The notes under the pieces were generated by a model. It searched no databases and was not told where the DNA came from. It saw only the letters and a program-made list of their open reading frames with translations. A stretch of DNA of 64,000 bases from an uncultured delta proteobacterium (GTDB lineage: Bacteria; Desulfobacterota; Binatia; UBA9968), in contig CAVUZH010000019.1 of the NCBI GenBank assembly GCA_963745835.1, forward strand, positions 416,001 to 480,000, written 5' to 3'. Each line of letters begins with the position of its first letter. Position 1 is the first letter of the stretch. The position numbers were made by a program, and so were the translations under genes. Of this stretch, positions 1 through 15,893 are shown in pieces.

Positions 1-530
1 GCTTGGAGCTACTCAAAGAAACACTCCCGAAGCTGTCCCGTGTAGCCGTTCTGTGGAACCCGAATGAACCAGGCACTCCATCAATATGGAAGGAAAGCGA
101 ACTGGTTGCACCCAACCTGGGTCTCCAGCTTCATTCTATGCAGGTCCGCAGTCCCGACAAGCTGGCCAGCGCGTTTGAAGCCGCGACAAAAGCACGTAGT
201 ACTGCACTCTCCGTAGCAACTGGTCCGTTTATCAGTTCACACCGAAAACAAATCACTGAACTGGCCCTCAAGTATAAGCTCCCGGCCATCTATGCAAGAG
301 AAGACTACGTCGACAACGGCGGTTTGATGTCTTACAGCGCTGACCAGAATGAGGCCTATAAGCGTGTCGCTGTCATGATCGACAAAGTTCTCAAAGGAGT
401 AAAGCCCAGCGACATTCCTGTTGAGCGCGCGACAAAATTTGAGCTCGCGATCAATCTAAAAACAGCCAACCAGATTGGCCTGACCATTCCGCGGAACGTG
501 CTAGCGAGGGCGGATAAGGTGATTAGGTAG
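1..530 (+). CDS. ABC_sub_bind-family solute-binding protein, copy 1 (5' truncated by window edge)
   Basis: ELLKE..P, GGLMSY and C-terminal IDKVLKGVKPSDIPVERATKFELAINLKTANQIGLTIP..VLARADKVIR shared with the seven following paralogs. Confidence 0.9.
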   Translation, partial: LELLKETLPKLSRVAVLWNPNEPGTPSIWKESELVAPNLGLQLHSMQVRSPDKLASAFEAATKARSTALSVATGPFISSHRKQITELALKYKLPAIYAREDYVDNGGLMSYSADQNEAYKRVAVMIDKVLKGVKPSDIPVERATKFELAINLKTANQIGLTIPRNVLARADKVIR

Positions 531-548
531 CAATTGCTGAGCAAAGTC

Positions 549-1531
549 ATGAGCAAAACAAAACTCTCGCTTATCGTTGGCGGTCTGCTCTTAGCATTCG
601 GAATGTGTGCCGAGGCGCAGCAGATAACGAAGATAGCGCGAATTGGCATTTTACCCGGCGGCTCTCCTTCATCCATGGCAACGCTAGTTGAAGCGTTCCA
701 GCAGGGCCTACATCAACTAGGGTATGTCGAGGGAAAGAACATTTTGCTTGAGTACCGTTATGCGGAGGGCAAGCATGAAAAGTATCGTGATCTCGCTGAC
801 GATTTGGTCCGCCTGAAACCCGACATCATCGTTGTATCGAGTACGGGGTTCACCGTTGCAGCAAAGGAGGCGACTAAGACGATCCGATCGTTGTGGCGGG
901 AGCTGGGGACCTTGTTGGAACCGGCATTGTTGCCAGTCTTGCTCGACCTGGTGGAAATGTCACAGGGTCAACGGCCATGGCTACCGATTTGAGTGGAAAC
1001 GGCTGGAATTGCTAAAAGAAGTTGTGCCGAAGGCAAAACGAGCGGCTGTATTTTGGCATACGTTTCCAGGCTCTCAGGACGAAGACGAGGTGAAACAAAC
1101 GCAGGTTGATGGGCCGCCTCTTGGACTCAAGATTCACGCTGTTTCAGTCCGAGGTACTGATGATTTCGAGAGTGCATTCACTCAGATGAAGAGAGATGCC
1201 GGTGCGCTTATAATCATTCAGGGTAGCTTCACGAATGTTTACCGGAGACGGCTCGCAGAGCTTTCGATCAAAAACCGCTTGCCCACAATGTGCGAGCAGC
1301 CTACTTGGACAGAGGAAGGTTGCCCTGGTGAGTTATGGGAGGGACCCACGCGACGGATGGCGACATGCTGCTGTTTTTGTCGATAAGATCCTCAAAGGAG
1401 CTAAAGCTGCAGACTTACCAGTCGAACAGCCAAGTAAGTTCATATTATCGATTAATCTCAAAACCGCCAAACAGATCGGTCTTACGATTCCGCCCAACGT
1501 GCTGGCGCGCGAAGATAAGGTCATAAAGTGA
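549..1531 (+). CDS. ABC_sub_bind-family SBP, copy 2; three single-base frameshifts (~884, ~997, ~1324)
   Basis: Adding C at gatccg, adding A at ggaaac and removing C at tgccctg restores [55 protein letters not shown]; signal peptide present. Confidence 0.85.
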
Positions 1532-1650
1532 TTTTAGATTTTCGATTCCGACTTTAGATTGAGGAAAAGAGCATGATTGAACGACCTTCGATGCGATTGC
1601 TTGATTCTGTGTCCGACAATCGGAAATCTAAAATCCAAAATCGAAAATTG
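1530..1650. repeat. Inverted heptamer repeat (ATTTTAG/ATTTTCG vs AAAATCY); 18-bp stem around the start of SBP3
   Basis: 1530-1547 GATTTTAGATTTTCGATT pairs with 1618-1635 AATCGGAAATCTAAAATC (one G-U); heptamers continue to ~1649. Confidence 0.75.
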
Positions 1651-2613
1651 GTGGAGATTGTTGCCTTCGTTCTTACTTTTGTAATGTGTGGCGTTGTGGC
1701 CCAGGCGCAGCAGCCCACGAAAATTCCCCGCGTAGGAGTTCTTTTCATCGGCTCTCGGAACCAACCCCATTTAGACGCATTCAAACAGGGCCTACGAGAA
1801 CGTGGATATGTGGAACAGAAGAACATCGTCCTTGAGTACCGCTATGCTGAAGGCAATAACGATCGACTGCCCCAACTCGCTGCCGAACTAGTACGCGACA
1901 AAGTCGATATCATAGTCACGACCGCATCGGTTAGCGCCCTCGCGGCGCGGGCAGTGACGAAGACGATACCGATTGTAATGACCAGTGGTAATCCTTTGGA
2001 AAGTGGCCTGGCCACCAGTTTGGCCAAGCCAGGCGGAAACGTCACGGGTCTTACGGTACTCTCGGTCGATTTGAGCGGCAAGCGGGTGGAACTCCTCACC
2101 GAAACATTTCCAAAAACTACGCGTATCGCGGCCCTGCAGAGTCCCCAGGACTTTGAAGCTGGCGCCGGCTACAAGGAAACACAAGAGGCGGCAAAAGCAT
2201 TTTCTCTGCGTTTACATCCCGTAGAAGTCCAATCGGCCAATGATTTTGAGCCTGCATTCGCTCAGATGAACAAGGCTCGTGAAACCGCTCTGCTCGTGAT
2301 CCTGTCGCCGATGATCACTTTTAACTCGCGCCGGATCGTGGAACTGGCGCTTAAGTATCGGTTGCCGGGCATGTACCCTACCAAACAATTTGCTGAGGAA
2401 GGCGGACTCATGTCGTACGGGCCCCTGATCGGTGATTTATACCGTCGCGCCGCCACTTACGTGGATAAAATTCTCAAAGGGGCGAACCCCGGTGAGTTGC
2501 CAGTGGAGCAGCCAACCAAGTTCGAGCTGGTCATCAATCTTCAAACAGCAAAGCAGATTGGTGTGACAATTCCGCCGAGTATGCTGGCGCGGGCAGACCG
2601 GGTGATCAAGTAA
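1573..2613 (+). CDS. ABC_sub_bind-family SBP, copy 3
   Basis: Full family motif set; SD-like GAGG upstream; N-terminal SDNRKSKIQNRK encoded by the heptamer repeat. Confidence 0.9.
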   Translation: MIERPSMRLLDSVSDNRKSKIQNRKLVEIVAFVLTFVMCGVVAQAQQPTKIPRVGVLFIGSRNQPHLDAFKQGLRERGYVEQKNIVLEYRYAEGNNDRLPQLAAELVRDKVDIIVTTASVSALAARAVTKTIPIVMTSGNPLESGLATSLAKPGGNVTGLTVLSVDLSGKRVELLTETFPKTTRIAALQSPQDFEAGAGYKETQEAAKAFSLRLHPVEVQSANDFEPAFAQMNKARETALLVILSPMITFNSRRIVELALKYRLPGMYPTKQFAEEGGLMSYGPLIGDLYRRAATYVDKILKGANPGELPVEQPTKFELVINLQTAKQIGVTIPPSMLARADRVIK

Positions 2614-2672
2614 AGTAGGTGTGAGGTGAAGCGAGATGAAGGCGCTACCGTAAAAACATGAAGGAGGCGTTT

Positions 2673-4295
2673 ATGAAGCTCAACAGACTTTTTCTATTTG
2701 GCATCCTCGTCACACTTCTTTGCCTGCCCGCAGTTATGGCGCAGGACAATACGGGGGAAAAAATCGGCCAGGTTAACTTTCCGGTCACCTGCAGCGCGGC
2801 GGCACAAAAGCAGTTCGATCAGGCTCTCGCCGCCCTACACTCGTTCTGGTACGAGGAAGCGCTCAGAGTGTTTACCGCTGTTGCGGAAACTGACCCCGCT
2901 TGCGCCATGGCCTACTGGGGAATCGCCATGAGCATTTACTATCCTCTCTGGGTGCCGCCGAGTCAGCCGACATTGCAGAAAGGGACTAATGCCATCGAAA
3001 AGGCGAAGTCGATCGGCGCCAAAACCGATCGTGAAGGCGCCTATATTGCGGCGATAGAAGTCTTCTACAAGGACTCGGACAAGCTCGAACACCGAGCCCG
3101 CACTCTCGCGTACGAAAAAGCGATGGAGCAGATCCACCGCCAGTACCCAAACGATAGAGAAGCCGCGATCTTCTACGCGCTGGCGCTCAACGCCACGGCG
3201 CCTCCAACTGACAAGACTTACGCGCAGCAGCGAAAGGCCGGCGAGATTCTTGAAAAGGTCTTTGCGGAGCAGCCGGATCACCCGGGCGTGGCTCATTACA
3301 TCATTCACAGCTATGATAATCCGTCTACGGCGAAACGTGGGCTTCCTGCCGCGCAACGCTACATCAAGATCGCCCCCTCAGTTCCTCACGCGCAGCACAT
3401 GCCTTCTCACATTTTTACGCGGCTCGGTTTTTGGCAAGAATCGATTCAATCAAATCTCGGAGCCGTGGCAGCATCGAAAGAATATGCGGCTAAGGTTCAT
3501 CCCGAAGCAGCATACTATGAGCATCTTCATGCCTTGGATTACCTAGTGTATGCCTACCTGCAAGGAGCCCAGGATCGCGAAGCCAAGCGCGTCGTTGACG
3601 AACTGCAGGCGATTAAAAAAGTCCAGCCGGAAGCGTTTCAGGCAGCTTACGCCTATGCTGCGATTCCGGCACGTTATGCGCTCGAGAGGCGCCGCTGGTC
3701 TGAGGCCGCAGCGTTGAGCGTGCAACCAACCGCCTTTCCCTGGAGCCGTTATCAGTGGGCGGAGGCCGTTACACATTTCGCGCGGGCCATGGGATCTGCA
3801 CGCAGCGGCAATGTTGTTAGCAGTCGAAAGGACATCGAAAAACTCGAGTCGCTCCAAGATGCCTTAGTCAAGGCTAAGGACAGCTACTGGGCTAAGCAGG
3901 TCGACATACAGCGCCGGGTGGCAAGCGCTTGGTACCTACGCGCCGAAAATAAAAATGATGAGGCGCTACAGCTCATGCAGTCCGCGGCGGACCTCGAGGA
4001 CTCGACCGACAAACACCCGGTCACGCCGGCACCGATCCAGCCTGCGCGCGAACTCCTGGGCGAAATGCTTCTTGAGCTCGGCGACCCTGCTCAAGCACTA
4101 AAAGAATTCGAGGTTTCGCACCGAGTGGAACCTAACCGCTTCCGCGGCCTCTACGGCGCCGCGAAGGCGGCTCACGAATCTGGGGACCGCGAAAAAGCGC
4201 GCCATTACTACGCAAAGCTAATTTCCCTCTGTGAACACGCCGATGCGGATCGACCCGAACTCAAAGAGGCGAAGGCATTCTTGTCGGATAAATAA
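2673..4295 (+). CDS. Secreted TPR-like helical protein with His-rich motifs, function unknown
   Basis: AAGGAGG SD before ATG 2673; signal peptide ending VMA-Q; TPR-like helices; HPGVAHYIIHSYD and PHAQHMPSHIF motifs. Confidence 0.8.
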   Translation: MKLNRLFLFGILVTLLCLPAVMAQDNTGEKIGQVNFPVTCSAAAQKQFDQALAALHSFWYEEALRVFTAVAETDPACAMAYWGIAMSIYYPLWVPPSQPTLQKGTNAIEKAKSIGAKTDREGAYIAAIEVFYKDSDKLEHRARTLAYEKAMEQIHRQYPNDREAAIFYALALNATAPPTDKTYAQQRKAGEILEKVFAEQPDHPGVAHYIIHSYDNPSTAKRGLPAAQRYIKIAPSVPHAQHMPSHIFTRLGFWQESIQSNLGAVAASKEYAAKVHPEAAYYEHLHALDYLVYAYLQGAQDREAKRVVDELQAIKKVQPEAFQAAYAYAAIPARYALERRRWSEAAALSVQPTAFPWSRYQWAEAVTHFARAMGSARSGNVVSSRKDIEKLESLQDALVKAKDSYWAKQVDIQRRVASAWYLRAENKNDEALQLMQSAADLEDSTDKHPVTPAPIQPARELLGEMLLELGDPAQALKEFEVSHRVEPNRFRGLYGAAKAAHESGDREKARHYYAKLISLCEHADADRPELKEAKAFLSDK

Positions 4296-4480
4296 GCCGA
4301 TTTAGTATTTGACGCTCAGGCACGTATACGCATCTTGTACCTCGGGATGGCTTTCTCTCTCTCTTCGACCTGTGATCGGTCCGAAAGTGCGAACCAACTC
4401 AATTTTGCGTGTTGAAAAGCGAATAAGGTGATGATGACGTCCAGCCGTGAACAGCTACCACTTATTAGCAAAGCATCGGA

Positions 4481-5488
4481 ATGAAATGGATGGCTGTAAT
4501 CAATTTTATTAGCTGCCTACTACTCAGTGCATGTCTGCTTGTTGTTTCTAACGTCGATGCCCTGCAGCCGCAGAAAATTTACAAAGTTGGAAGGCTTAGC
4601 GCGGGCTCTCCTAAGGATCCGCTTACCAATGCGACCTACGACGCCTTCCGCGGAGGGCTGCGTGACCTAGGTTGGATCGAGGGCAGCACTATCATCTTGG
4701 AGAATCGTTGGGCGGGAGAGCCCAGCGCGAACGCGGTTGATCTCGCGGCCGAGCTCGTTCGGCTCAAAGTGGACGTCATCGTCGCCGTAGGCAGCCCATT
4801 AATTCAAGCAGCGAAGCAGGCAACCAATGCAATTCCCATCGTCATGTCCGGCACCGGCGCCGACCCGGTTGCAGCGGGCTTCGTCGCCAGTCTTGGACGG
4901 CCGGGACGCAACATCACCGGCCTGAGTATGCTTTCTACCGAGCTGAGCGGCAAACGGTTAGAGCTGCTCAAAGAGACGGTTGCTAATCTCGGGCGAGTCG
5001 CCGTCCTGCGCAATCCGAAATTTCCCGCCGTAGCAATTCAATCGAAACAGACGGAAGAGGCGGCAAAGTCCTTAGGGCTTCAGCTCCAAGCTTGGGAAGT
5101 GCGCACTCCCGAGGAAATTGATAGCGCCTTTTTGTCCATGAGCAAGGCTGGCCTTAGCGGTCTCGTTGTGTTTAGCGATCCGGTGCTGCTCGAGAGAAAC
5201 CGCGCATCGATCATCACGCTAACGCGCAAGTACCGCATTCCGACTGTTTATCCGTGGAGAAACTATGTCGAGGAGGGCGGCCTGGCGAGCTATTCGGCGA
5301 ATCTGCTAGACATGCACCGCCGGGCTGCGACTTACGTCGATAAAATATTTAAGGGCGCCAAGCCTGGGGAACTGCCGGTTGAGCAGCCTACGAGGTTTGA
5401 GCTGGTGATCAACTTAAAAACAGCCAAACAAATCGGCCTGGCGGTACCGCAGTCGGTGCTGGCAAGAGCGGACAAGGTCATCAGATGA
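4481..5488 (+). CDS. ABC_sub_bind-family SBP, copy 4
   Basis: [30 protein letters not shown], conserved C-terminus. Confidence 0.9.
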   Translation: MKWMAVINFISCLLLSACLLVVSNVDALQPQKIYKVGRLSAGSPKDPLTNATYDAFRGGLRDLGWIEGSTIILENRWAGEPSANAVDLAAELVRLKVDVIVAVGSPLIQAAKQATNAIPIVMSGTGADPVAAGFVASLGRPGRNITGLSMLSTELSGKRLELLKETVANLGRVAVLRNPKFPAVAIQSKQTEEAAKSLGLQLQAWEVRTPEEIDSAFLSMSKAGLSGLVVFSDPVLLERNRASIITLTRKYRIPTVYPWRNYVEEGGLASYSANLLDMHRRAATYVDKIFKGAKPGELPVEQPTRFELVINLKTAKQIGLAVPQSVLARADKVIR

Positions 5489-5541
5489 CAGAGCTCAAAC
5501 ATTGAGGGACATTGTCATTTCTGATTGCTTTCGAGGAATTC

Positions 5542-6510
5542 ATGAATAAGAAGATACTTTTCGCAGCAATGATCATCTTCACTCTCGGCGCTCTTGGCGT
5601 AGTCAACGCGCAGCCGACTGGGAAGATTCCAAGGATCGGTATTCTCGCGGACTTCATCACGCCGCAGCTTGACGCCCTACGGCAGGGCCTGCGCGATTTG
5701 GGCTACATCGAAGGTCAAAACCTCTTGATCGAATACCGATATGCGGAGGGGAAGCACGAGCGTGTTCCCGAACTGGTGGCTGAACTGCTTGGTCTCAAAA
5801 CCGATCTCATACTTACAAGCGGACCCATCACTCCTATCGCCGCAAAAATCATCAAAGGTGTTCCGGTTGTTTTCTCGTTAAGCGGTGATCCGGTTGAAGC
5901 AGGACTCATTGCAAGTCTGGCGCGGCCTGGAGGAACCATGACTGGTATGACTTTTTTCTCCTCTGTGTTGGCCGGCAAGCGAGTCGAGTTGCTTAAAGAA
6001 GCCGTGCCCGGGACGGCCCGTGTTGGGGTGCTAGCTAATCCAAACCACGCCGGCGAATCACTCGAATTCAGAGAGACTGAAGCCGCCGCCAAGGCCATGA
6101 GTGTTAGCGTCCAAAGGCACACGGTGCAGGCGGCCGATGATTTCGCCGGCGCTTTTAATGCAATTGGCAAACAGCGCGCCACTGCCATTATCACGTTCCC
6201 CGATGCGCTGATGCTGGCGCATCGAAAGGAGATTGCCGAGTTTGCCGTGAAACTGCGGGTGGCCAGCGTTGGTGGGTGGAGTCAATTTGCCGACGCTGGA
6301 GGGTTGATGACCTATGGTCCGAATCTTTTCAACTCGTTTAAGCGTCTTGCTTTCTACATTGACAAGATTCTCAAGGGAACCAAACCGGCGGATCTTCCTA
6401 TCGAGCAGCCAACAAATTTAGAGCTGGTGGTTAATCTCAACACGGCAAAGCAGATCGGCCTGAGCATTCCGCCCACCGTGCTGGCGCGGGCAGATCGAGT
6501 GATCAAGTGA
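5542..6510 (+). CDS. ABC_sub_bind-family SBP, copy 5
   Basis: GAGGA SD before ATG 5542; signal peptide; family motifs. Confidence 0.9.
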   Translation: MNKKILFAAMIIFTLGALGVVNAQPTGKIPRIGILADFITPQLDALRQGLRDLGYIEGQNLLIEYRYAEGKHERVPELVAELLGLKTDLILTSGPITPIAAKIIKGVPVVFSLSGDPVEAGLIASLARPGGTMTGMTFFSSVLAGKRVELLKEAVPGTARVGVLANPNHAGESLEFRETEAAAKAMSVSVQRHTVQAADDFAGAFNAIGKQRATAIITFPDALMLAHRKEIAEFAVKLRVASVGGWSQFADAGGLMTYGPNLFNSFKRLAFYIDKILKGTKPADLPIEQPTNLELVVNLNTAKQIGLSIPPTVLARADRVIK

Positions 6511-6591
6511 TTTGCACTCCAATCGCCTGATTGATCCGAGCAGAGTCTGAGTCATGGGACAGGTGCCCCATTCCGGTTTGATAAGACACTC

Positions 6592-7578
6592 ATGATCCAC
6601 GGCATCGTGATCTGTGTTCTAGCGATTTTGTTAGTGAGCGCACCCGCGCAGCTTGCTCATGGACAGCAGTCCAAGAGAATTCCGACGGTAGGTCTTTTAA
6701 CCGCGAGCTCTCCTGACCTGCAACGGCACCTGATCCAGGCATTCAAGCAAGGCTTGCTGGACCTAGGCTATGTCGAGGGACAAAACCTCGCGCTTGAGAT
6801 TCGTGCAGCCGAGGGGAAGTACGAGAGACTCCCAGCATTGGCGAAGGACCTTGTTAATCTTAAGGCAGACGTCATCTTTGCCGCCAGCGCGCCTGCGATT
6901 GGGGCGGCCAAGAAAGCTGCCGGTAATACTCCTATCGTGTTTGAGACATTATCCGATCCGGTCGCTGACGGCTTCGTTGACACACTCGCCCGTCCGGGCG
7001 GTAATCTCACTGGTCTCGCTGGCCTAGCACCTGAATTGAGTGGCAAACGACTGGAGCTGCTCAGGGAGATCGTTCCAGGACTCACCCGCGTCGGTGTTCT
7101 CCTCAATCCAAAAAACCCGAACGCACAGCGGCTGTTTAAGGAGACGGCACATTACGCCCACGCATTGGCCATGCAGCTCGAAGTTTTCGAAGTGCGACGG
7201 GCTGATGAATTGACAAAAGCATTTTCAACGATGATCAAAACTCGGGTTACAGGCCTTTCGGTCGTCCCTGATCCAACGTTGTTCGCTGCGCGACAAGAGA
7301 TTGCTGACCAAACAATCAGAGCCAAATTACCGGCCGTCTATGGAATCTCGGGTATGGCCGAAGTTGGCGGGCTGCTGGTTTATGGGCCGAGCCTTCCTGA
7401 CTTGTGGCGCCGTGCTGCGACATATATCGACAAAATCCTCAAAGGCGCCAAACCCTCCGATCTACCCGTCGAGCAGCCAACGAAGTTCGAACTGGTGATT
7501 AATCTGAAAACCGCCAAGCAAATCGGCCTGACCATCCCACCCAATGTGCTGGCAAGGGCAGATCGGGTGATTCGGTGA
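6592..7578 (+). CDS. ABC_sub_bind-family SBP, copy 6
   Basis: Signal peptide; DPVADGFVDTLARPGGNLTG; conserved C-terminus. Confidence 0.9.
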   Translation: MIHGIVICVLAILLVSAPAQLAHGQQSKRIPTVGLLTASSPDLQRHLIQAFKQGLLDLGYVEGQNLALEIRAAEGKYERLPALAKDLVNLKADVIFAASAPAIGAAKKAAGNTPIVFETLSDPVADGFVDTLARPGGNLTGLAGLAPELSGKRLELLREIVPGLTRVGVLLNPKNPNAQRLFKETAHYAHALAMQLEVFEVRRADELTKAFSTMIKTRVTGLSVVPDPTLFAARQEIADQTIRAKLPAVYGISGMAEVGGLLVYGPSLPDLWRRAATYIDKILKGAKPSDLPVEQPTKFELVINLKTAKQIGLTIPPNVLARADRVIR

Positions 7579-7806
7579 GCCTTGAGCCGTGAGGGGAAGG
7601 CGTGAGTCATTCAATGCCTTGGTTCTGCCCCTGCCCGCGAGGATCGTTTGAGAGCCGAGCATCTGAAAGAGAACTTATCACTTTGGTTCGGACGAAAATC
7701 AACGGAGACAAGTAATTGGCAGCGGCGTCATTATTGAACTGATGAATATTACTGAGTTCGTAAAAAACCAGGTACGAGCGGATTTTCGAAAAGATCGGGG
7801 TAGCGA

Positions 7807-8775
7807 ATGCGAAAACGACTTTTCATTGTAGCGCTCGGCTTTCTAGCGATTTGTCTTCCCGCGCAGGCGCAGCAGATGAAACACATCGGTTACATCGGGG
7901 CGGGATCCAAGGTTACCGCTGGCCATCATGCGACAGCGTTCGCGCAAGGACTGCGCGAACTTGGGTACGTGGAGGGACGGAATATAGTAATCGAGCATCG
8001 ATGGGCTGAAGGAAGTATCGAAAAGCTGCCCCACTTGGTCGCCGATTTGATTCGCCTGAAAGTCGACGTCTTAGTTTCGTCGGCTACGCCGGCGATCCGG
8101 CTTGCCAAGGAGCAAACCAGCAGTATTCCAATTGTCATGGCCGGCGTCACCGATCCCGTCGGAGTTGGATTCGTCGCGAGTCTCGCGCGGCCGGGAGGTA
8201 ATATCACTGGACTGACACATCTTGCTCCGGACCTGACCGGCAAAAGATTGGAGTTACTCAAGGAAGTTGTTCCACGACTTTCGCGACTGGCCGTCATCTG
8301 GAATCCCGAGCAGCCCGGTCAGCAGCTGGCTTACAAAGAGAGTCAGGTAGCGGCCCAGACGCTGAAGTTAACAGTGACTTCCATAGAAGTGCGCAATCGG
8401 GAAGACATTGAAAAATTACTTCCCGGAGTTGGGAAGGACCGCATCGAAGCGCTCTTGGAGCTTCCCGATCCCGTTCTCTTCGCAAACCGTGTTTTGATCA
8501 CAGAGTTCGCAACCAAACATCGGCTTCCGGCAATGTACAGCTTCAGTGAGTACGTTGAAGCCGGCGGTCTCATGTCCTACGGCACGAGCTTTCCAGGCCT
8601 GTTTCATCGCGCCGCAACGTATGTGGACAAAATCTTCAAAGGTGCCAAACCAGCGGAACTCCCGGTCGAGCAGCCCACCAAGTTTGAATCAGTGATCAAT
8701 TTGAAAGCGGCAAAAACAATCGGCCTCACTATTCCGCAGCGGGTCCTGGCCCGGGCGGATAGTGTGATCAAGTGA
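7807..8775 (+). CDS. ABC_sub_bind-family SBP, copy 7
   Basis: Signal peptide AQA; [20 protein letters not shown]; conserved C-terminus. Confidence 0.9.
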   Translation: MRKRLFIVALGFLAICLPAQAQQMKHIGYIGAGSKVTAGHHATAFAQGLRELGYVEGRNIVIEHRWAEGSIEKLPHLVADLIRLKVDVLVSSATPAIRLAKEQTSSIPIVMAGVTDPVGVGFVASLARPGGNITGLTHLAPDLTGKRLELLKEVVPRLSRLAVIWNPEQPGQQLAYKESQVAAQTLKLTVTSIEVRNREDIEKLLPGVGKDRIEALLELPDPVLFANRVLITEFATKHRLPAMYSFSEYVEAGGLMSYGTSFPGLFHRAATYVDKIFKGAKPAELPVEQPTKFESVINLKAAKTIGLTIPQRVLARADSVIK

Positions 8776-9809
8776 CCTCAGGTGATAAGCAGAAACCGGT
8801 TAGCAGAGAAAACTCGGAGCCCGATGGGATGATTAGAAGCATTGCTATCTGCCTAGTGATCACTGCTGTGCTGCCAGCTGTTTGCCTCGCCGAGGCGCTG
8901 CAGCAGGGGAAACGAGTGTACCGAATCGCGGTTCTGTCACCGGCCACACGGCCGCGGCCGGTCATCGACGCACTTCGACAAAGGTTACGAGAGCTCGGCT
9001 ATACGGAAAATCAAAACGTCGCGTTTGAAGATCGTTACGCCGAGTTTAAAATGGAACGTCTGCCAGAACTGGCTTCCGAGTTGGTCAAGCTCAGGCCCGA
9101 TGTCATCTTTACGCATTCGATGACCGGCGCAAGGGCGGCCAAGCAAGCCACTTCAACCATTCCAATAGTCATTGGAGCGGCCGGTGATCTGGTAACGGAC
9201 GGCATAGTCGCCAGCCTGGCGCGTCCAGGTGGAAACGTCACCGGCGTGACTTTGCTAAGCTCCGAGCTGGAAGGTAAAAGGCTCGAGCTTTTGAAGGAAA
9301 CATCCCGCAAACTCTCTCGCGTGGCGGTTTTAGTGAATGCGGCAAACTCCGCCTGGGAGAATTACCCGCAGGTTCTCGAGCCCGCTGGTCAGGCGCTCAA
9401 GTTGCGTCTCGAGCGCGTTGAAGTCAGGCAATCCGCCGAGTTCGAAGACGCGTTCGCCGCGATGCGTCGCAATGGAGTCGATGGCGTGCTGGTAGTCAGC
9501 GATCCCATGTTTCAAACTTATCAGAATCGCATCGCGGAGTTCGCGGCCAGGCAGCAACTGCCGAGCATTTCAGAAGTGCCGGGGTTCGCGGAGGCCGGCG
9601 GTCTGATCCAGTATGGGCTCAGCATTCACGAGATGGGGCGACAGGCAGCAGTGTATGTCGACAAGATCCTCAAGGGTGCACAGCCGGCGGATCTGCCGGT
9701 CGAGCGGCCGACAAAATTCGAATTCCTCATTAATCTGAAAACAGCTCGACAATTGGGTTTGACCCTGCCCCCGGCTATGCTGGCGCGGGCGGACAAGGTC
9801 ATAAAGTGA
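8772..9809 (+). CDS. ABC_sub_bind-family SBP, copy 8 (start may be ATG 8829)
   Basis: GTGA overlap with copy 7; family motifs. Confidence 0.9.
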   Translation: MTSGDKQKPVSRENSEPDGMIRSIAICLVITAVLPAVCLAEALQQGKRVYRIAVLSPATRPRPVIDALRQRLRELGYTENQNVAFEDRYAEFKMERLPELASELVKLRPDVIFTHSMTGARAAKQATSTIPIVIGAAGDLVTDGIVASLARPGGNVTGVTLLSSELEGKRLELLKETSRKLSRVAVLVNAANSAWENYPQVLEPAGQALKLRLERVEVRQSAEFEDAFAAMRRNGVDGVLVVSDPMFQTYQNRIAEFAARQQLPSISEVPGFAEAGGLIQYGLSIHEMGRQAAVYVDKILKGAQPADLPVERPTKFEFLINLKTARQLGLTLPPAMLARADKVIK

Positions 9810-9840
9810 TATATCGATACCCACAAGGTGATCAGACGAA

Positions 9841-12243
9841 ATGAAGCTGCGTGATTTGCCCGTGTTGAAAAGCTTTGGCGTGCGTCGCCGGCGCGAACGG
9901 CTGCTGCGCGATTATTTCTTGATTTCCGTGCTGCTGATCGGCGGCGGCTTGATCACCAGCGGCCTGGTCGAGATCTATTTTCGATATCAGGAGAGCCAAG
10001 AGCAGCTCGCTCTGCTGCAGAAGGAAATTGCCGCCGGCGCCGCCTTCAAGATCGAACAGTTCGTTCAGGAGATTCATAACATCTTGAAAGGAGCCACCAA
10101 GAGCCGCGATATCGCGCCGAAAGGTTTGACGCCGGAGTTTCGGTTTGAATTAGAGAAACTCTTGATCATTGCGCCGGCGGTAACTGAGGCGCTTGCGGTC
10201 GACGAAAACGGTACTATCCAAGTGCAAGCATCGCGATTGCGCACGGTTTTACCGGACGCCAAGAAAGACCTCTCCACCTCGCCGTCCTTCCGTCAAGCAA
10301 GGCAGGGCAAATCCTATTTCGGCCAGGTTTATTTCGTTCGCGGATCAGAACCCTATATGACCATCGCCGTGCCCATCGAGCGGTTTGCCGGCGACGTCAT
10401 CGGCGTGCTTCAGGCCGAAGTCAATTTGAAATACATCGGCGACGTTGTTTCCAACATCCGCGTGGGCAAAGCCGGCCACGCTTATACGATCAGTCGAGCC
10501 GGCGAATTAATCGCCCATCCGGATATCAGCCTCGTGCTGCAGCGCCGCAATGTGCTCCACCTGGAACAGGCCAGAGCCGCGTTTCGACCAAACACGCCCG
10601 GTGTCGCGGCGTCCAATGCAATTGTCGCCGCGGATCTGCAAGGCAAAGATGTGCTCAGCTCGTTCGCCTTGATCCCAACTCTCGACTGGGCGGTGGTGCT
10701 CGAGCGGCCGGTCGAGGAGGCCTACGAAGCGCTATATGCTTCGATGATTCGAACCTCGACGCTTTTCATGATCGGTCTCGGCATGGCTCTCATCGCCAGC
10801 CTGTTCTTAGCGCGTCGTGTTATTCGACCGGTGAGAATCCTGCGCCAAGGTGTCGAACGAATCGGCAGCGGCGATCTGGCATATCGGCTCAATCTTAAAA
10901 CCGGCGATGAGATGGAAATATTTGCCGACGAGTTCAACAAGATGACATCTCAGCTGCAAGAGTCCTATGCCAATTTGGAGCAAAAAGTCGAAGCGCGCAC
11001 CAAGGAGCTCACCGAATCGTTGGAGCAACAGACGGCAACGAGCCAGGTTCTGGGCGTTATCAGCAGTTCGCCGAGAGACCTGCAACCGGTATTTGAAACC
11101 ATGCTCGCCAACGCCACACGTTTGGGCAGTTCCGACTACGGCGCGATTTTTAGATTTGATGGAAAGGTCTTCAGCCTAGTTACGGCTCAATATGTTTCGC
11201 CGCATATGACCGTATTGGCTGATCGAACATTTCCGCCGGACCCGACGACCGCAGTCGGCCGCCTTGGGCTGGAGAAGAAGATCGTGCACATTCCTGATGT
11301 TACAGCGGATCCTAAATGGAACCCTCCGGAAGAATACCGCAAGGAGGGCATACGGAGCGTTCTCGCGGTGCCCATGCTCAAGGAAAATAATCTGGTCGGC
11401 GCGATTGTTGTTTACCGCAGAGAAATTCAACCATTCACGGAAAGTCAAATTGCCCTGCTCAAGACTTTCGCCGATCAGGCCGTCATTGCCATCGAGAATG
11501 TTCGTCTCTTTAAAGAGCTCGAAGAAAAGAATGAACAGCTCGAAGCCGCCAACCGGCATAAGTCTCAGTTCCTGGCGAACGTCAGCCATGAGCTGCGCAC
11601 ACCGCTGAACTCGATCATCGGCTTTACCCGGCTCGTGCTGCGAAAGATCGAGGGACAGATCGAAAAGCTGCAGAAAGAAAATCTGCAGAAAGTGCTGGTC
11701 AGCGCGGAACACCTGCTCAAATTGATCAACGGTCTTTTGGATTTGGCCAAGATCGAAGCCGGCCGCATGGAAGTGTATGCCGAAACATTCAAGATCGATG
11801 ACGTAGTCCGGATTGCAACGGCAACGGTCGAGCCGATGCTCAGAAATGGCAACGTGCGCCTCGTTACTGAGATGTCTCCCGAGCTTCCGGCGATCAAAAC
11901 AGACCGAGATAAACTGAAACAAGTCATTCTCAATCTCTTGAGCAACTCGGCTAAATTCACCGAAGCAGGAGAAATCAAAGTAGCCGCGTGGTCGGAGAAC
12001 GGTTCGCTGAAGCTGGCTATTTCCGACACCGGAATCGGCATGAACAAAGACGCCTTGCATTATATCTTCGATGAATTCCGCCAAGTGGACATGTCGACGA
12101 CTAGAAAATACGGCGGAACCGGACTCGGGTTGGCTATCGTCAAACGACTCATTGATTTGCTCGGCGGCGAAATCGGCGTCGAGAGCGAAGTAGGCAAGGG
12201 TTCAAAGTTTACCATCACCCTGCCGCTCAGCCAGAACAACTGA
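9841..12243 (+). CDS. Membrane sensor histidine kinase (TM-dCache-TM-HAMP-GAF-HisKA-HATPase)
   Basis: Two TM helices; Cache-like YFGQVYF..PYMTIAVPI; GAF (AVPML..LVGAI..F.DQAVIAIENVRL); H-box FLANVSHELRTPLNSIIGF; N, G1, F, G2 boxes (GGTGLGL). Confidence 0.95.
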   Translation: MKLRDLPVLKSFGVRRRRERLLRDYFLISVLLIGGGLITSGLVEIYFRYQESQEQLALLQKEIAAGAAFKIEQFVQEIHNILKGATKSRDIAPKGLTPEFRFELEKLLIIAPAVTEALAVDENGTIQVQASRLRTVLPDAKKDLSTSPSFRQARQGKSYFGQVYFVRGSEPYMTIAVPIERFAGDVIGVLQAEVNLKYIGDVVSNIRVGKAGHAYTISRAGELIAHPDISLVLQRRNVLHLEQARAAFRPNTPGVAASNAIVAADLQGKDVLSSFALIPTLDWAVVLERPVEEAYEALYASMIRTSTLFMIGLGMALIASLFLARRVIRPVRILRQGVERIGSGDLAYRLNLKTGDEMEIFADEFNKMTSQLQESYANLEQKVEARTKELTESLEQQTATSQVLGVISSSPRDLQPVFETMLANATRLGSSDYGAIFRFDGKVFSLVTAQYVSPHMTVLADRTFPPDPTTAVGRLGLEKKIVHIPDVTADPKWNPPEEYRKEGIRSVLAVPMLKENNLVGAIVVYRREIQPFTESQIALLKTFADQAVIAIENVRLFKELEEKNEQLEAANRHKSQFLANVSHELRTPLNSIIGFTRLVLRKIEGQIEKLQKENLQKVLVSAEHLLKLINGLLDLAKIEAGRMEVYAETFKIDDVVRIATATVEPMLRNGNVRLVTEMSPELPAIKTDRDKLKQVILNLLSNSAKFTEAGEIKVAAWSENGSLKLAISDTGIGMNKDALHYIFDEFRQVDMSTTRKYGGTGLGLAIVKRLIDLLGGEIGVESEVGKGSKFTITLPLSQNN

Positions 12244-12350
12244 ACAGCTTCGAGCTTTCGATTGGGAGCCGCAGGGAACAACAACCCCATCGCGAGCTGG
12301 TATGGAAGAATTCACCGCAGTCTAAATTCAGCTCTGCCAGCGAGGATCCT

Positions 12351-12719
12351 ATGGGAAAAAAGAAAAAAATACTTGTAGTCGATGACACTGAATTCAATCG
12401 CGATTTAGTGGTGCAACTGCTTGAAGACGAGTTTGAATTGATTATCGCCGAGGACGGCGCCCAAGGCCTCAAACAAACGCAATCCGAAAGGCCGGACCTC
12501 ATCTTGATGGATCTCGGCATGCCGATCATGGATGGCTGGGAAGCGACGCGCAAAATAAAAGCTAACGATGAGCTAAAGCATATTCCGATTATTGCCGTAA
12601 CATCCCATGCCATGGCGGGCGACGAAGTCGAGGCGCGCAAGGCCGGCTGCGATGATTATCTGCCGAAGCCTATCGATGAAGACGAATTGTTGAAAAAGAT
12701 CAGAAAATTTCTCGATTGA
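12351..12719 (+). CDS. Single-domain response regulator (DivK-like)
   Basis: VVDD, LILMD.GMP.MDGWEATRKIK, IPIIAVTSHAM.GD, KP. Confidence 0.9.
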   Translation: MGKKKKILVVDDTEFNRDLVVQLLEDEFELIIAEDGAQGLKQTQSERPDLILMDLGMPIMDGWEATRKIKANDELKHIPIIAVTSHAMAGDEVEARKAGCDDYLPKPIDEDELLKKIRKFLD

Positions 12720-12784
12720 TGCCTGAGTTGAGCCGAGCAGAAGCAACTCCCGATTAAATCGAAAACTGTAGAAGCGATACGCTC

Positions 12785-13873
12785 ATGACCAACAAAATTC
12801 TGATCGTCGACGACGAGCCATTCAATCTTGATCTGCTCGAGCAAGAGTTACAGGAGCAAGGTTACGAGATCGAAAGAGCCAGCGACGGCGCTGAGGCGCT
12901 CGAAAAACTGCCGGCCTTTGTACCGGATGTCGTGCTCCTCGATTACATGATGCCGAGGATGAACGGGCTGGAGGTTCTGAAGCGGCTTCGAGCCGACGAG
13001 AAATGGCGCAGTCTTCCGGTGATACTTCTCACGGCGAAGGCGGCGCAGGAAGATAAGATCACCGGTCTCGACGCCGGCGCCGACGATTACGTCATCAAGC
13101 CGTTCGATGCATTCGAGCTGTTGGCCAGAGTCCGTTCGATGCTGCGTATAAAAGAGCTGCACGATTCTTTGGAGGACCTGAACAAGACACTGGCTCAAAA
13201 AGTCGAACAACAGGTTGGCGAGATTGAGCGCATGAAGCGCCTGAAGCGATACTTTTCGCCGCAAATCGCCGATACTTTGATCGAGAGCAATGATGAGAGT
13301 TTGTTCAAAACCCACCGGCGCGAAATCACGGTGGTGTTCCTTGACCTGCGCGGCTTTACCGCGTTCTCCGATAGCGCCGAACCGGAAGAGGTGATGGAAT
13401 TGCTGCGAACCTATCACGCCGCAATGGGCAAGCTGGTTTTTAAATACGAAGGCACCCTCGAGCGCTTCGCCGGCGATGGCATCATGATCTTCTTCAATGA
13501 CCCGATAGTGTGCGACGATCATACCGAGCGGGCGATTCGTATGGCCCTCGAGATGCGTAGCCGAAGCACAGAGCTTCGCAGTGGCTGGATGAAGAAAGGT
13601 TACGATCTAGATTTGGGCATCGGCCTGGCCGCCAGCTATGCAACCTTGGGAAACATCGGCTTCGAGGGCCGCATGGATTACGGCGCGGTGGGTAACGTCA
13701 CCAATCTTGCGGCGCGCCTTTGCGACGAGGCCAAGGGCGGGCAGATCCTGACCAATCAGAGAACCTTGAGCAAAGTCGAAGACCTGGTCGAATTCGAAAC
13801 TTGCGAAGAGTTGCATCTCAAGGGCTTTAGCCGGGCCGTCGCTGCTTTCAATATAGTTAAGCTCAAATCGTGA
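12785..13873 (+). CDS. Receiver domain fused to class III nucleotidyl (adenylate/guanylate) cyclase
   Basis: N-terminal REC; VVFLDLRGFT, FAGDGIM, GNVTNLAARL catalytic motifs. Confidence 0.92.
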   Translation: MTNKILIVDDEPFNLDLLEQELQEQGYEIERASDGAEALEKLPAFVPDVVLLDYMMPRMNGLEVLKRLRADEKWRSLPVILLTAKAAQEDKITGLDAGADDYVIKPFDAFELLARVRSMLRIKELHDSLEDLNKTLAQKVEQQVGEIERMKRLKRYFSPQIADTLIESNDESLFKTHRREITVVFLDLRGFTAFSDSAEPEEVMELLRTYHAAMGKLVFKYEGTLERFAGDGIMIFFNDPIVCDDHTERAIRMALEMRSRSTELRSGWMKKGYDLDLGIGLAASYATLGNIGFEGRMDYGAVGNVTNLAARLCDEAKGGQILTNQRTLSKVEDLVEFETCEELHLKGFSRAVAAFNIVKLKS

Positions 13874-13949
13874 ACGACCAATACCAATCGAGCTCAGCGT
13901 GGAGACTCACTTTAAAAATATCCTTCCGTCCGCTTTCCGTAGCGAGAAC

Positions 13950-13979
13950 TTGACGTTCTTCCCAGCCCGACCCTACAAT
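13950..13979 (+). promoter_or_regulatory. Putative sigma70 promoter of the sigma54-activator gene
   Basis: TTGACG-N18-TACAAT 20 bp upstream of ATG 14000. Confidence 0.5.
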
Positions 13980-13999
13980 CCAGCCGTCCGATATCCGCA

Positions 14000-15347
14000 A
14001 TGGCACATAGAATTTTACTCGTCGATGACGAGCCCTTTAACTTAGACCTGCTGGAGCAAGAGTTAGCGGATCAGGGCCATTCGATTGCAACCTGCGCCAG
14101 TGGCGAGGAGGCTCTGGAGAAGTTGCCCGGATTTCAACCCGATTTGATTCTGCTCGACTACATGATGCCCGGGATGAATGGTCTGGAAGTGCTAAAAGAA
14201 ATCCGGCGAAAAGGTCTCGACACTCCGGTGGTCATCATCACCGCCCATGGTACCATCGAGCGGGCGGTAGAGACGATGAAGGAGGGCGCCGAAGATTTTC
14301 TTACCAAGCCGTTCGATCCTGATCATCTCGCTATCGTAGTCAAGAAAGGCGCTGGAGCGGACCCGGCTTCGTGAAGAAGTAGAAATTCTTTCCGAACAGC
14401 TCGACGCTCGCTTTAAGATGGTTCAGGGCAAAAGCCTGTCGATGGCGCGGGCGGTCAGTGAGGCCCAAAAAGCCGCGGTCAGCAAGTCCACGGTTCTGCT
14501 GCTCGGCGAGAGCGGCACCGGCAAGGAAATTTTTGCCAGAGCAATCCACAATTGGAGTCAAAGAAAATCAGCGCCGTTTATACCGATCAATTGCGTAGGC
14601 CTTTCCAAAGATCTTTTGGAAAGCGAGCTGTTCGGTCATGAGAAAGGCGCATTTACCGGCGCGCACCAGTTAAAGAAAGGAAGAGTCGAGCTAGCCGACG
14701 GTGGAACGATTTTTCTTGACGAGGTTGGCGATATCTCCCCGGAGCTTCAAGCCAAGCTTCTGAGGTTTTTACAAGAGCGCGAGTTCGAGCGCGTCGGCGG
14801 AACACACCAGATCAGCGTGGATGTGAGAATCGTTGCGGCAACCAACCGCAATATCGACAAAGCGGTGAGCGATGGCACGTTTCGTGAGGATCTCTATCAT
14901 CGGCTAAACGTCATTCCGATCATCCTCACCCCGCTTCGGGAACGCCGTGAAGACATCTCCGAGCTGGCAGCCCATTTCTTACAGCGATTTTCTATTGAAA
15001 CCAAGAAGCTATTTTCGGGAATCAACGCCGATGCGGACGCAACTCTCATGGCCTACGGTTGGCCCGGGAATGTGCGCGAGTTAGCTAATGTAATCGAGCG
15101 CGCAGTAGTTCTCGGAGACGGTCCCCTTCTGACCATTGACCTGCTGCCGGCGCGCATCGCCGGTCTAAAGCCAACCTATACAACTGCCGAAGCTAAATCC
15201 TATCACGATACAATCAATCATCACCGGCGCGATCTGATCCTGAAGGCGCTGTCTGAGGCCGGTGGCAATCGCGCAGCCGCTGCCAAGGCTCTCGGATTGC
15301 ACAGAACTCATCTACTGAAGCTGATCAAAGCTTTACAGCTCGGCTAG
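14000..15347 (+). CDS. Sigma54-dependent response regulator (REC-AAA+-HTH, NtrC family); one frameshift ~14348
   Basis: Removing one G in aagaaaggcgctg joins REC to [35 protein letters not shown] and a Fis-type HTH. Confidence 0.9.
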
Positions 15348-15729: not shown

Positions 15730-15839
15730 CCGGTCAGCTACAAAATATGGGAGGGTTTTTGTTCTACTTCTCTTCGCCTGAGTCACGCTTTAACTCCCCT
15801 CGATACAGCCCGCCCGCCGAATCCTAAAAGGAGGTGCCT

Positions 15840-15893
15840 ATGGCAACTAAGAAAAAAGCGGCAAAGAAAAAAGCCAAGAAGAAAAAGAAGTAA
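15840..15893 (+). CDS. 17-aa lysine-rich micro-protein MATKKKAAKKKAKKKKK
   Basis: AAGGAGGT SD just upstream of ATG; own promoter and terminator; below the ORF-track length cut-off. Confidence 0.7.
   Translation: MATKKKAAKKKAKKKKK

Follow-up and report, generated by a model that had tools for sequence, protein, structure and literature searches.

Why should a bacterial genome hold dozens of genes for solute-binding proteins (SBPs) with no permease beside them, and why should one long run of such genes end at the gene for a sensor kinase? This question is raised by the window analysed here, a 64,000-nucleotide stretch from a member of the Binatia (G000:C19:416001-480000; window positions are counted from its first letter), the first 15,347 positions of which an original prediction had read as many interchangeable receptors acting on one kinase. 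We find that SBP and receptor genes of these two families are conserved neighbours across genomes, and the best reading of our results is that the SBPs are probably detachable, interchangeable ligand sensors, many of which dock on few receptors.

Conservation of the SBP-receptor gene pair

Positions 1 to 9809 of the window hold eight PF04392 units on one strand (six of them intact, one truncated at the window edge and one frameshifted), which agrees with the eight or more same-strand ABC_sub_bind paralogues first described. These are the tail of a larger array of about 45 kb (C19:380557-425809), which comprises 35 units bearing a C-terminus and reaches some 35 kb beyond the window. The intact units of the window score 139-173 bits against a Pfam cut-off of 25.9, and all seven units with a start inside the window have an N-terminal hydrophobic stretch, which is in keeping with the signal peptides ascribed to them, as judged without a signal-peptide predictor. 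The last SBP gene ends at 9809 and the kinase gene starts at 9841, confirming the 31-bp gap, and this junction is spanned by a contig of run X1 (window 9543-10539, 3 differences). Within the gap (window 9810-9840) is a sequence closely matching the end of the SBP gene and resembling a ribosome-binding site, possibly a relic of such a tail that has been put to use in translation.

The kinase, the close homologues of which carry the name Candidatus Binatia, has a first membrane helix at residues ~25-45 and a second at ~305-325, between which lies a periplasmic dCache_1 domain, as in SBP-stimulated dCache kinases; HAMP, GAF, HisKA (H-box 582) and HATPase domains follow. Genes for a receiver (REC), a REC-cyclase and a REC-sigma54 activator come next in the order and with the domains predicted; however, the likeness of the first to DivK is a resemblance only, as it scores 69.8 bits with family NF045717, for which the cut-off is 160, and we class it as a generic single-domain REC.

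Across the genome we counted 94 PF04392 units bearing a C-terminus (133 matches if fragments are included, and 68 near-full-length domains), with further multi-copy arrays on contigs C3, C22, C14 (two) and C24. The sensor domain of the kinase has four representatives (C19, C25, C3 and C18), and a PF04392 gene lies directly upstream of all four. With about 94 SBP units to one permease and four receptors, a ratio of about 20 SBPs per receptor, and with diverged paralogues in tandem arrays, this is a lineage-specific expansion of orphan SBPs. The SBP pool is genome-wide and not confined to the array in the window, and three more receptors could share it.

We collected 80 GTDB loci with this sensor domain, of which 58 could be evaluated because they include at least 1.5 kb of upstream sequence. 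An SBP gene is found on the same strand within 1.7 kb upstream of the receptor at 52 of the 58 and anywhere in the locus at 54; L125, L141, L142 and L148 have no SBP on the receptor strand. SBP genes also occur downstream, within the operon, at 30 of the 80 loci, and the 10 kb upstream contain anything from no copy to about 10. Among 61 genomes of the family, 59 have an SBP of this clade and 56 the receptor. In selected genomes from other phyla the sole clade SBP stands beside the sole receptor in four cases out of five, and plasmids gave matches to the SBP in 62 records and to the sensor in 54, mostly from Rhizobium; on pRL11 of Rhizobium johnstonii 3841, RL_RS30325 (SBP) precedes RL_RS30330 (dCache-cyclase) by 40 bp, with no transporter. 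An SBP gene thus stands beside the receptor without a transporter, as in HptA/HptS and LuxP/LuxQ, at 52/58 loci, at 4/4 positions in this genome and on pRL11, so that the adjacency check proposed for the kinase family came out in its favour. With E values up to 1e-30, 1115 clusters match the receptor profile; in a phylum-wide sample, no SBP lay within 1.5 kb of four weak receptor matches (E 1e-31 to 1e-37).

A permease was sought at several levels. None of the nine PF02653 matches in the genome is on contig C19, none of the 80 receptor loci has a permease match, and with a single-protein query the permease type of contig C23 was found in only 3 of the 61 family genomes. The sole PF04392 transport-type operon, that on C23 (L016:2439-7445), runs in the order two-domain SBP, STAS-domain protein, permease and ATPase, and its SBP is placed far outside the expanded clade. 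Two window SBPs scanned against the TrpX equivalog NF041285 scored 159 and 117 bits, below the cut-off of 390. A transporter shared by the SBPs is disfavoured by these results, and it is well supported that the clade consists of signalling proteins rather than transporter subunits, as had been proposed from the lack of a cognate transporter in the window. We conclude that a real, conserved signalling module, in which a new SBP family works with a dCache receptor, is highly probable.

Predicted docking, and variation across the SBP surface

We modelled the kinase-proximal SBP and the sensor domain. The SBP model (pLDDT 93.7) has the class I SBP fold, with 3LKV, 3LFT and 6HNJ as its best fold matches, and it aligns with the solved PF04392 structures 6HNI, 3LKV and 3LFT at TM-scores of 0.77-0.83 and 24-28% identity; the sensor domain was modelled as a dCache fold (pLDDT 87.0). 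When this SBP was modelled together with two sensor domains the predicted complex scored 0.61, compared with 0.00 for the best of 3 controls; runs shared at least 89% of contacts and partner pLDDT was at least 85. Of 157 solved pairs 116 reach the mark used for such scores, as do 2 of 215 mismatched ones; these counts apply only roughly here. In the model the SBP bridges two sensor monomers through residues 148-151, 165-172, 204-209, 307-320 and 334-345, which from class I topology would span both lobes and the hinge. On the sensor, conservation is modestly higher at the contacts than at other positions (p 0.025). The model thus supports SBP-sensor docking for the one paralogue to which it applies; complex modelling had been suggested for every SBP.

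Amino-acid-sensing dCache_1 domains of the PctA type have the pocket motif Y-x-R-x-W...Y...D. By eye, the matching stretch of the kinase sensor has no R or W, and another direct ligand is possible; its distal module retains some conserved pocket-like residues.

We then compared the 65 intact SBPs of this genome, leaving out the divergent C23, C3:1291016 and C19:188350 proteins, at 33 interface positions and at 40 pocket positions, the latter being cleft-facing strand ends defined by DSSP. (An earlier pocket list, chosen after the entropies had been seen, was circular and was replaced by this set.) It can be seen that median identity is 73% at the interface, 23% in the cleft loops and 46% over all non-interface positions, and that K169 is kept in 64, F316 in 62 and E311 in 61 of the 65 paralogues. 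Intact paralogues match the interface consensus at a median of 82% of positions, with a minimum of 52%. Variation, on the other hand, gathers at the cleft-facing strand ends, where entropy is 2.69 as against 1.35 at the opposite ends. The specificity of the PF04392 protein CD0873 is set by Glu-263 and Tyr-279 according to the accessible text of PMC6816091; these residues map to SBP positions 269 and 285, which are in the top 2% and 6% of variability.

Between sister sequences (72 pairs) interface positions had a dN/dS of 0.05-0.07, pocket positions one of 0.12-0.20 and the remaining positions one of 0.13-0.15; no positive selection was seen in the pocket. Because the pocket values are far below 1, pockets are maintained within lineages and differ between paralogues.

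Probable sharing of one receptor by many SBPs

If each kinase had its own cognate SBP, neighbouring partners should be related as the kinases are. A tree of 246 SBPs shows the 51 kinase-proximal ones dispersed among array members. Where kinase sensors are 70-90% identical, the proximal SBPs are 45-46% identical (median) compared with 48% for random paralogues, and only when the sensors exceed 90% identity does the neighbouring SBP follow the kinase (SBP identity 78%). A fixed cognate SBP per kinase is ruled out by the tree together with this comparison. As the proximal SBP varies beside similar kinases, many different SBPs must be able to act on the kinase if these proteins act on it at all. 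The claim that many interchangeable receptors serve one kinase is in this way supported indirectly, by a shared docking face, by neighbour turnover and by the number of SBPs per receptor, with docking modelled for one paralogue; that the other paralogues would dock likewise is suggested by the conserved face.

A looser form of pairing, in which each kinase uses one or a few SBPs and the rest are a recombination-fed reservoir or serve other membrane partners, we consider unlikely. Strict 1:1 SBP-receptor pairs do occur in other phyla, specificity classes exist, since the SBP next to the divergent C3 kinase is itself divergent and agrees with the interface consensus at only 14 of 33 residues, and many SBP copies are broken, with an excess of gene-tail relics; however, closely related kinases are usually neighboured by different paralogues, and the intact paralogues keep their docking face under strong purifying selection. 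It is less likely still that the SBPs have a ligand-independent role as kinase modulators, phage or predator shields or solute buffers, with the dCache pocket doing the sensing and the diversity of SBP pockets reflecting relaxed constraint. Such a role would be compatible with the conserved residues in the dCache distal module and with a pocket dN/dS above the rest at 70% identity or more (0.20 compared with 0.14-0.15), and the SBPs are themselves only presumed to bind ligands; nevertheless the pocket values are nowhere near 1, and the variation is concentrated where a ligand would be met, including at the two CD0873 specificity positions. That all the SBPs instead feed the one PF02653-type permease and ATPase on C23, as proposed for orphan TTT proteins, has to recommend it the existence of that operon and the aromatic amino acids bound by three solved PF04392 proteins, and given the rarity of the permease, its own outlying SBP and the TrpX scores it is most improbable.

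Several observations weigh against many-to-one docking. At the level of the genome, a dCache receptor ends only one of six multi-copy arrays, the C19 one; REC and TadE genes stand at the end of the C3 array, and a cytoplasmic poly-GAF kinase at that of the C22 array. With a single-protein query, G009 (29 SBPs) and G059 (20 SBPs) gave no receptor match, and in a 101-genome phylum sample a clade SBP was present in one of five other receptor-positive genomes, a figure that is uninformative because both thresholds there also catch outside relatives. Six of the 58 evaluable loci have no upstream SBP within 1.7 kb, and the loci come mostly from one family and are not independent. The model concerns one SBP, may echo solved SBP-dCache complexes and tends toward conserved patches, and the C-terminal LARA motif, which forms part of the docking face, is also kept in the transport protein 3LKV. 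In pairs 70-90% identical, pocket positions are no better kept than equally variable controls. Finally, 116 long PF04392 matches included no credible SBP-dCache fusion and no dCache or histidine-kinase domains; most of them are SBP-SBP doubles. We set aside one partial SBP-dCache protein, P0213, as an apparent frameshift mosaic. Many proteins of 580-790 aa (P0270-P0359), mostly singletons, resemble tandem doubles of the SBP clade; these could be genuine fusions or the read-through products of recombination within arrays.

The mechanism that we propose for many-to-one docking is as follows. Each PF04392 SBP would be exported and bind its own small molecule in the cleft between two lobes, and its conserved hinge or back face would dock on the membrane-distal tip of the dimeric dCache sensor. 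Closure of the SBP on ligand would shift the sensor dimer, HAMP would relay this to the kinase, and the kinase would phosphorylate the REC, the REC-cyclase and the REC-sigma54 activator. Outside the Binatia the pair would work 1:1, as with the SBP and dCache-cyclase of Rhizobium 3841; in the Binatia the SBP side would have expanded to dozens, keeping the docking face and varying the pocket, so that many could share the same few receptors.

The activator may also feed back on the receptor pool. With one mismatch to the consensus tolerated, a sigma54-type motif lies in front of 17 of 79 first SBP genes; the figures for inner genes and for random windows are 1 of 94 and 81 of 3000. In this genome the motif stands at three of eight heads of arrays or pairs, C19:380537 among them. 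This suggests array-head promoters through which the sigma54 activator would act on the SBP genes.

The arrays themselves appear to be in flux. A relative, L072, is 96% identical to the window from position 8608 on, the match beginning within the final 170 bp of the penultimate SBP gene, and the 7.6 kb upstream in L072 has no match of at least 88% in this genome. C-terminal relics are in excess, with 117 C-terminal matches as against 98-99 N-terminal or middle ones; silent-site identity, otherwise 0.30-0.33, reaches 0.50 over the final 15 codons, and only 24 of 65 SBPs have their nearest paralogue in the same array or contig. These features fit a turnover of SBP copies by homologous recombination at conserved gene tails, although the silent-site rise could have another explanation in a ribosome-binding signal.

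Other features of the locus, and known systems

The features of the array end and kinase operon are given in Table 1.

Table 1. Genes from the left edge of the window to the end of the kinase operon (window positions)
Feature	Position	Strand	Evidence or remark
PF04392 SBP, 3' part	1..530	+	whole gene C19:415529-416530 (= L001:18529-19530)
PF04392 paralogue, frameshifted twice, three pieces	534..1531	+	Pfam match
PF04392 paralogue, intact, 346 aa	1573..2613	+	Pfam match
Secreted TPR protein, 545 aa, interrupts SBP array	2658..4295	+	domain scan
PF04392 paralogue, intact	4481..5488	+	Pfam match
PF04392 paralogue, intact	5512..6510	+	Pfam match
PF04392 paralogue, intact	6592..7578	+	Pfam match
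PF04392 paralogue, intact; L072 synteny starts in its last ~170 bp (window 8608)	7807..8775	+	
Kinase-proximal PF04392 paralogue, intact; predicted docking across dCache dimer	8772..9809	+	Pfam, structure model
Sensor histidine kinase, 800 aa	9841..12243	+	dCache_1-HAMP-GAF-HisKA-HATPase
Single-domain response regulator (REC)	12351..12719	+	domain scan
REC-class III nucleotide cyclase	12785..13873	+	domain scan
REC-sigma54 activator-HTH, frame split near 14344	14000..15347	+	domain scan

Two of the frame disruptions are probably assembly errors. The first frameshift of the second SBP unit, near 883, is missing from an otherwise identical contig of run X1, which covers that frameshift and not the second one. 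The split in the activator falls in the same class because independent contigs of runs X1 and X6 have one base fewer near 14344, which gives a single 448-aa frame. The cyclase carries what we take to be both metal-binding Asp motifs and the Asn/Arg motif. Only one of 100 related loci has a match to the TPR protein, and that a partial one, so that by sequence comparison this gene appears to be cargo not conserved at its place in the array. Contigs of RNA run X15 are short pieces only and say nothing on expression either way.

Cargo is also found elsewhere within arrays, in the form of PIN-domain genes, an S1/P1 nuclease and secreted proteins (L001:6767-7153, L015:2302-2904, L004:2251-3024, L001:10692-11471). 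We scanned 171 of 299 non-SBP ORFs on array flanks, those nearest the arrays, and saw no integrase among those of the C19 array by general domain scans, no search having been aimed at IntI or attC. Inverted runs of a 6-7-base word (FWILDFRL / NRKSKIQNRK in translation) occur in many SBP gene leaders, at window 1530-1660 and at many L001 sites. A gene for an AI-2E family transporter lies divergently just before the C19 array head (L002:13208-14323), and one for a CAP12/Pycsar-type TIR domain about 2 kb upstream of a C13 PF04392 gene (L006:7026-7778). The divergent PF04392 gene C19:188350 is arranged head to head with genes for a CHASE2-cyclase and a FecR-TPR protein (L012:2654-7369), and its small clade turns up again near the kinase operon in relatives. 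Beyond the operon in the window, a very short ORF (15838-15891), rich in Lys and Ala and provided with a strong ribosome-binding site, lies between the activator and an AhpC/TSA gene.

The genome also encodes giant cytoplasmic poly-GAF histidine kinases (G000:C15:238746-269704, C13:148266-155799, C22:252811-258577) without a dCache-family sensor in front. The GAF domain of the window gave 89 tblastn pieces, and one intact frame of 2749 aa is on C15, where REC and REC-sigma54 genes follow; the C13 and C22 kinases adjoin PF04392 genes.

The sigma54 activator downstream of the kinase is a further likeness to LuxP/LuxQ, where LuxO is of this kind. The kinase itself is no LuxQ: it scores 223 bits, over the kinase core only, with equivalog NF041947 (cut-off 1200 bits). 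SBP-stimulated dCache-type kinases covered in the main text of a signalling review are HptA/HptS, LuxP/LuxQ, CBP/ChiS and NspS/MbaA, in which, as here, a periplasmic SBP is encoded beside a dCache-like receptor, and the modelled bridging of two monomers by one SBP resembles its description of HptA/HptS (PMC8050422). Unlike HptA/HptS and LuxP/LuxQ, the present system has tens of SBP paralogues rather than one, and HAMP-GAF kinase or cyclase outputs; its SBP family is PF04392, a term absent from the main text of that review (PMC8050422).

More than one SBP on a single receptor is also known, so that the premise of the original prediction, that there is usually one per kinase, has exceptions in print. 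In Streptococcus mutans LevQRST two binding proteins, LevQ and LevT, reportedly serve one kinase, LevS. The Bacillus subtilis dCache chemoreceptor McpC was pulled down with ArtP, MetQ and YckB, as the review's main text relates (PMC8050422). These systems have two or three SBPs, whereas here there are at least 65 intact paralogues of a dedicated, expanded family with a constant docking face. Orphan TTT (TctC/Bug) expansions in Rhodoplanes and Bordetella, for which a sensing role was proposed, are similar in being lineage-specific and arranged in tandem, with paralogues ~50% identical and nearest relatives often outside the array, as far as the accessible text of PMC5994714 describes them. They involve another SBP family, their largest array has 9 genes compared with 35 units here, and that text (PMC5994714) names no single conserved partner receptor; the present SBPs have a single receptor family syntenic with them across phyla, and a modelled interface. 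The aromatic amino-acid ABC SBPs TrpX, CD0873, VC_1101 and SP1069 share the Pfam family and class I fold of the present proteins, which differ from them in having no cognate permease/ATPase, in falling below the NF041285 cut-off and in having the specificity positions among the most variable; the accessible text of PMC10443332 lists PF04392 solely with Trp, Tyr and Phe as ligands. SBP-on-dCache signalling, several SBPs per receptor and orphan SBP expansion with a proposed sensing role are therefore already known. In the literature covered, which included few subscription journals and no supplements, we found no description of a PF04392-dCache pairing or of this expansion.

The original prediction is partly borne out, and of the outcomes named in advance as fatal to it, none was encountered: no transporter lies upstream, the adjacency is conserved, and docking is supported by a model for one paralogue. 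The fullest form of our proposal is a combinatorial receptor system in which some 70-90 constant-dock, variable-pocket SBPs signal through a handful of dCache kinases, with sigma54 feedback and with docking-tail recombination refreshing the pool; we put this forward tentatively, rating it slightly below an even chance. If it is true, recombination at the tails that encode the docking face would mean that new sensors arrive already wired in, and a function would be found for a very large family, in abundant soil bacteria, the members of which are routinely labelled 'ABC transporter substrate-binding protein'. What massed orphan SBPs do, a long-standing question, would become directly testable, the receptor being named, the interface mapped to residues and a model organism available in culture (Rhizobium 3841 RL_RS30325 and RL_RS30330), and a sensor in which the input is changed by swapping a soluble part would be a chassis for biosensors.

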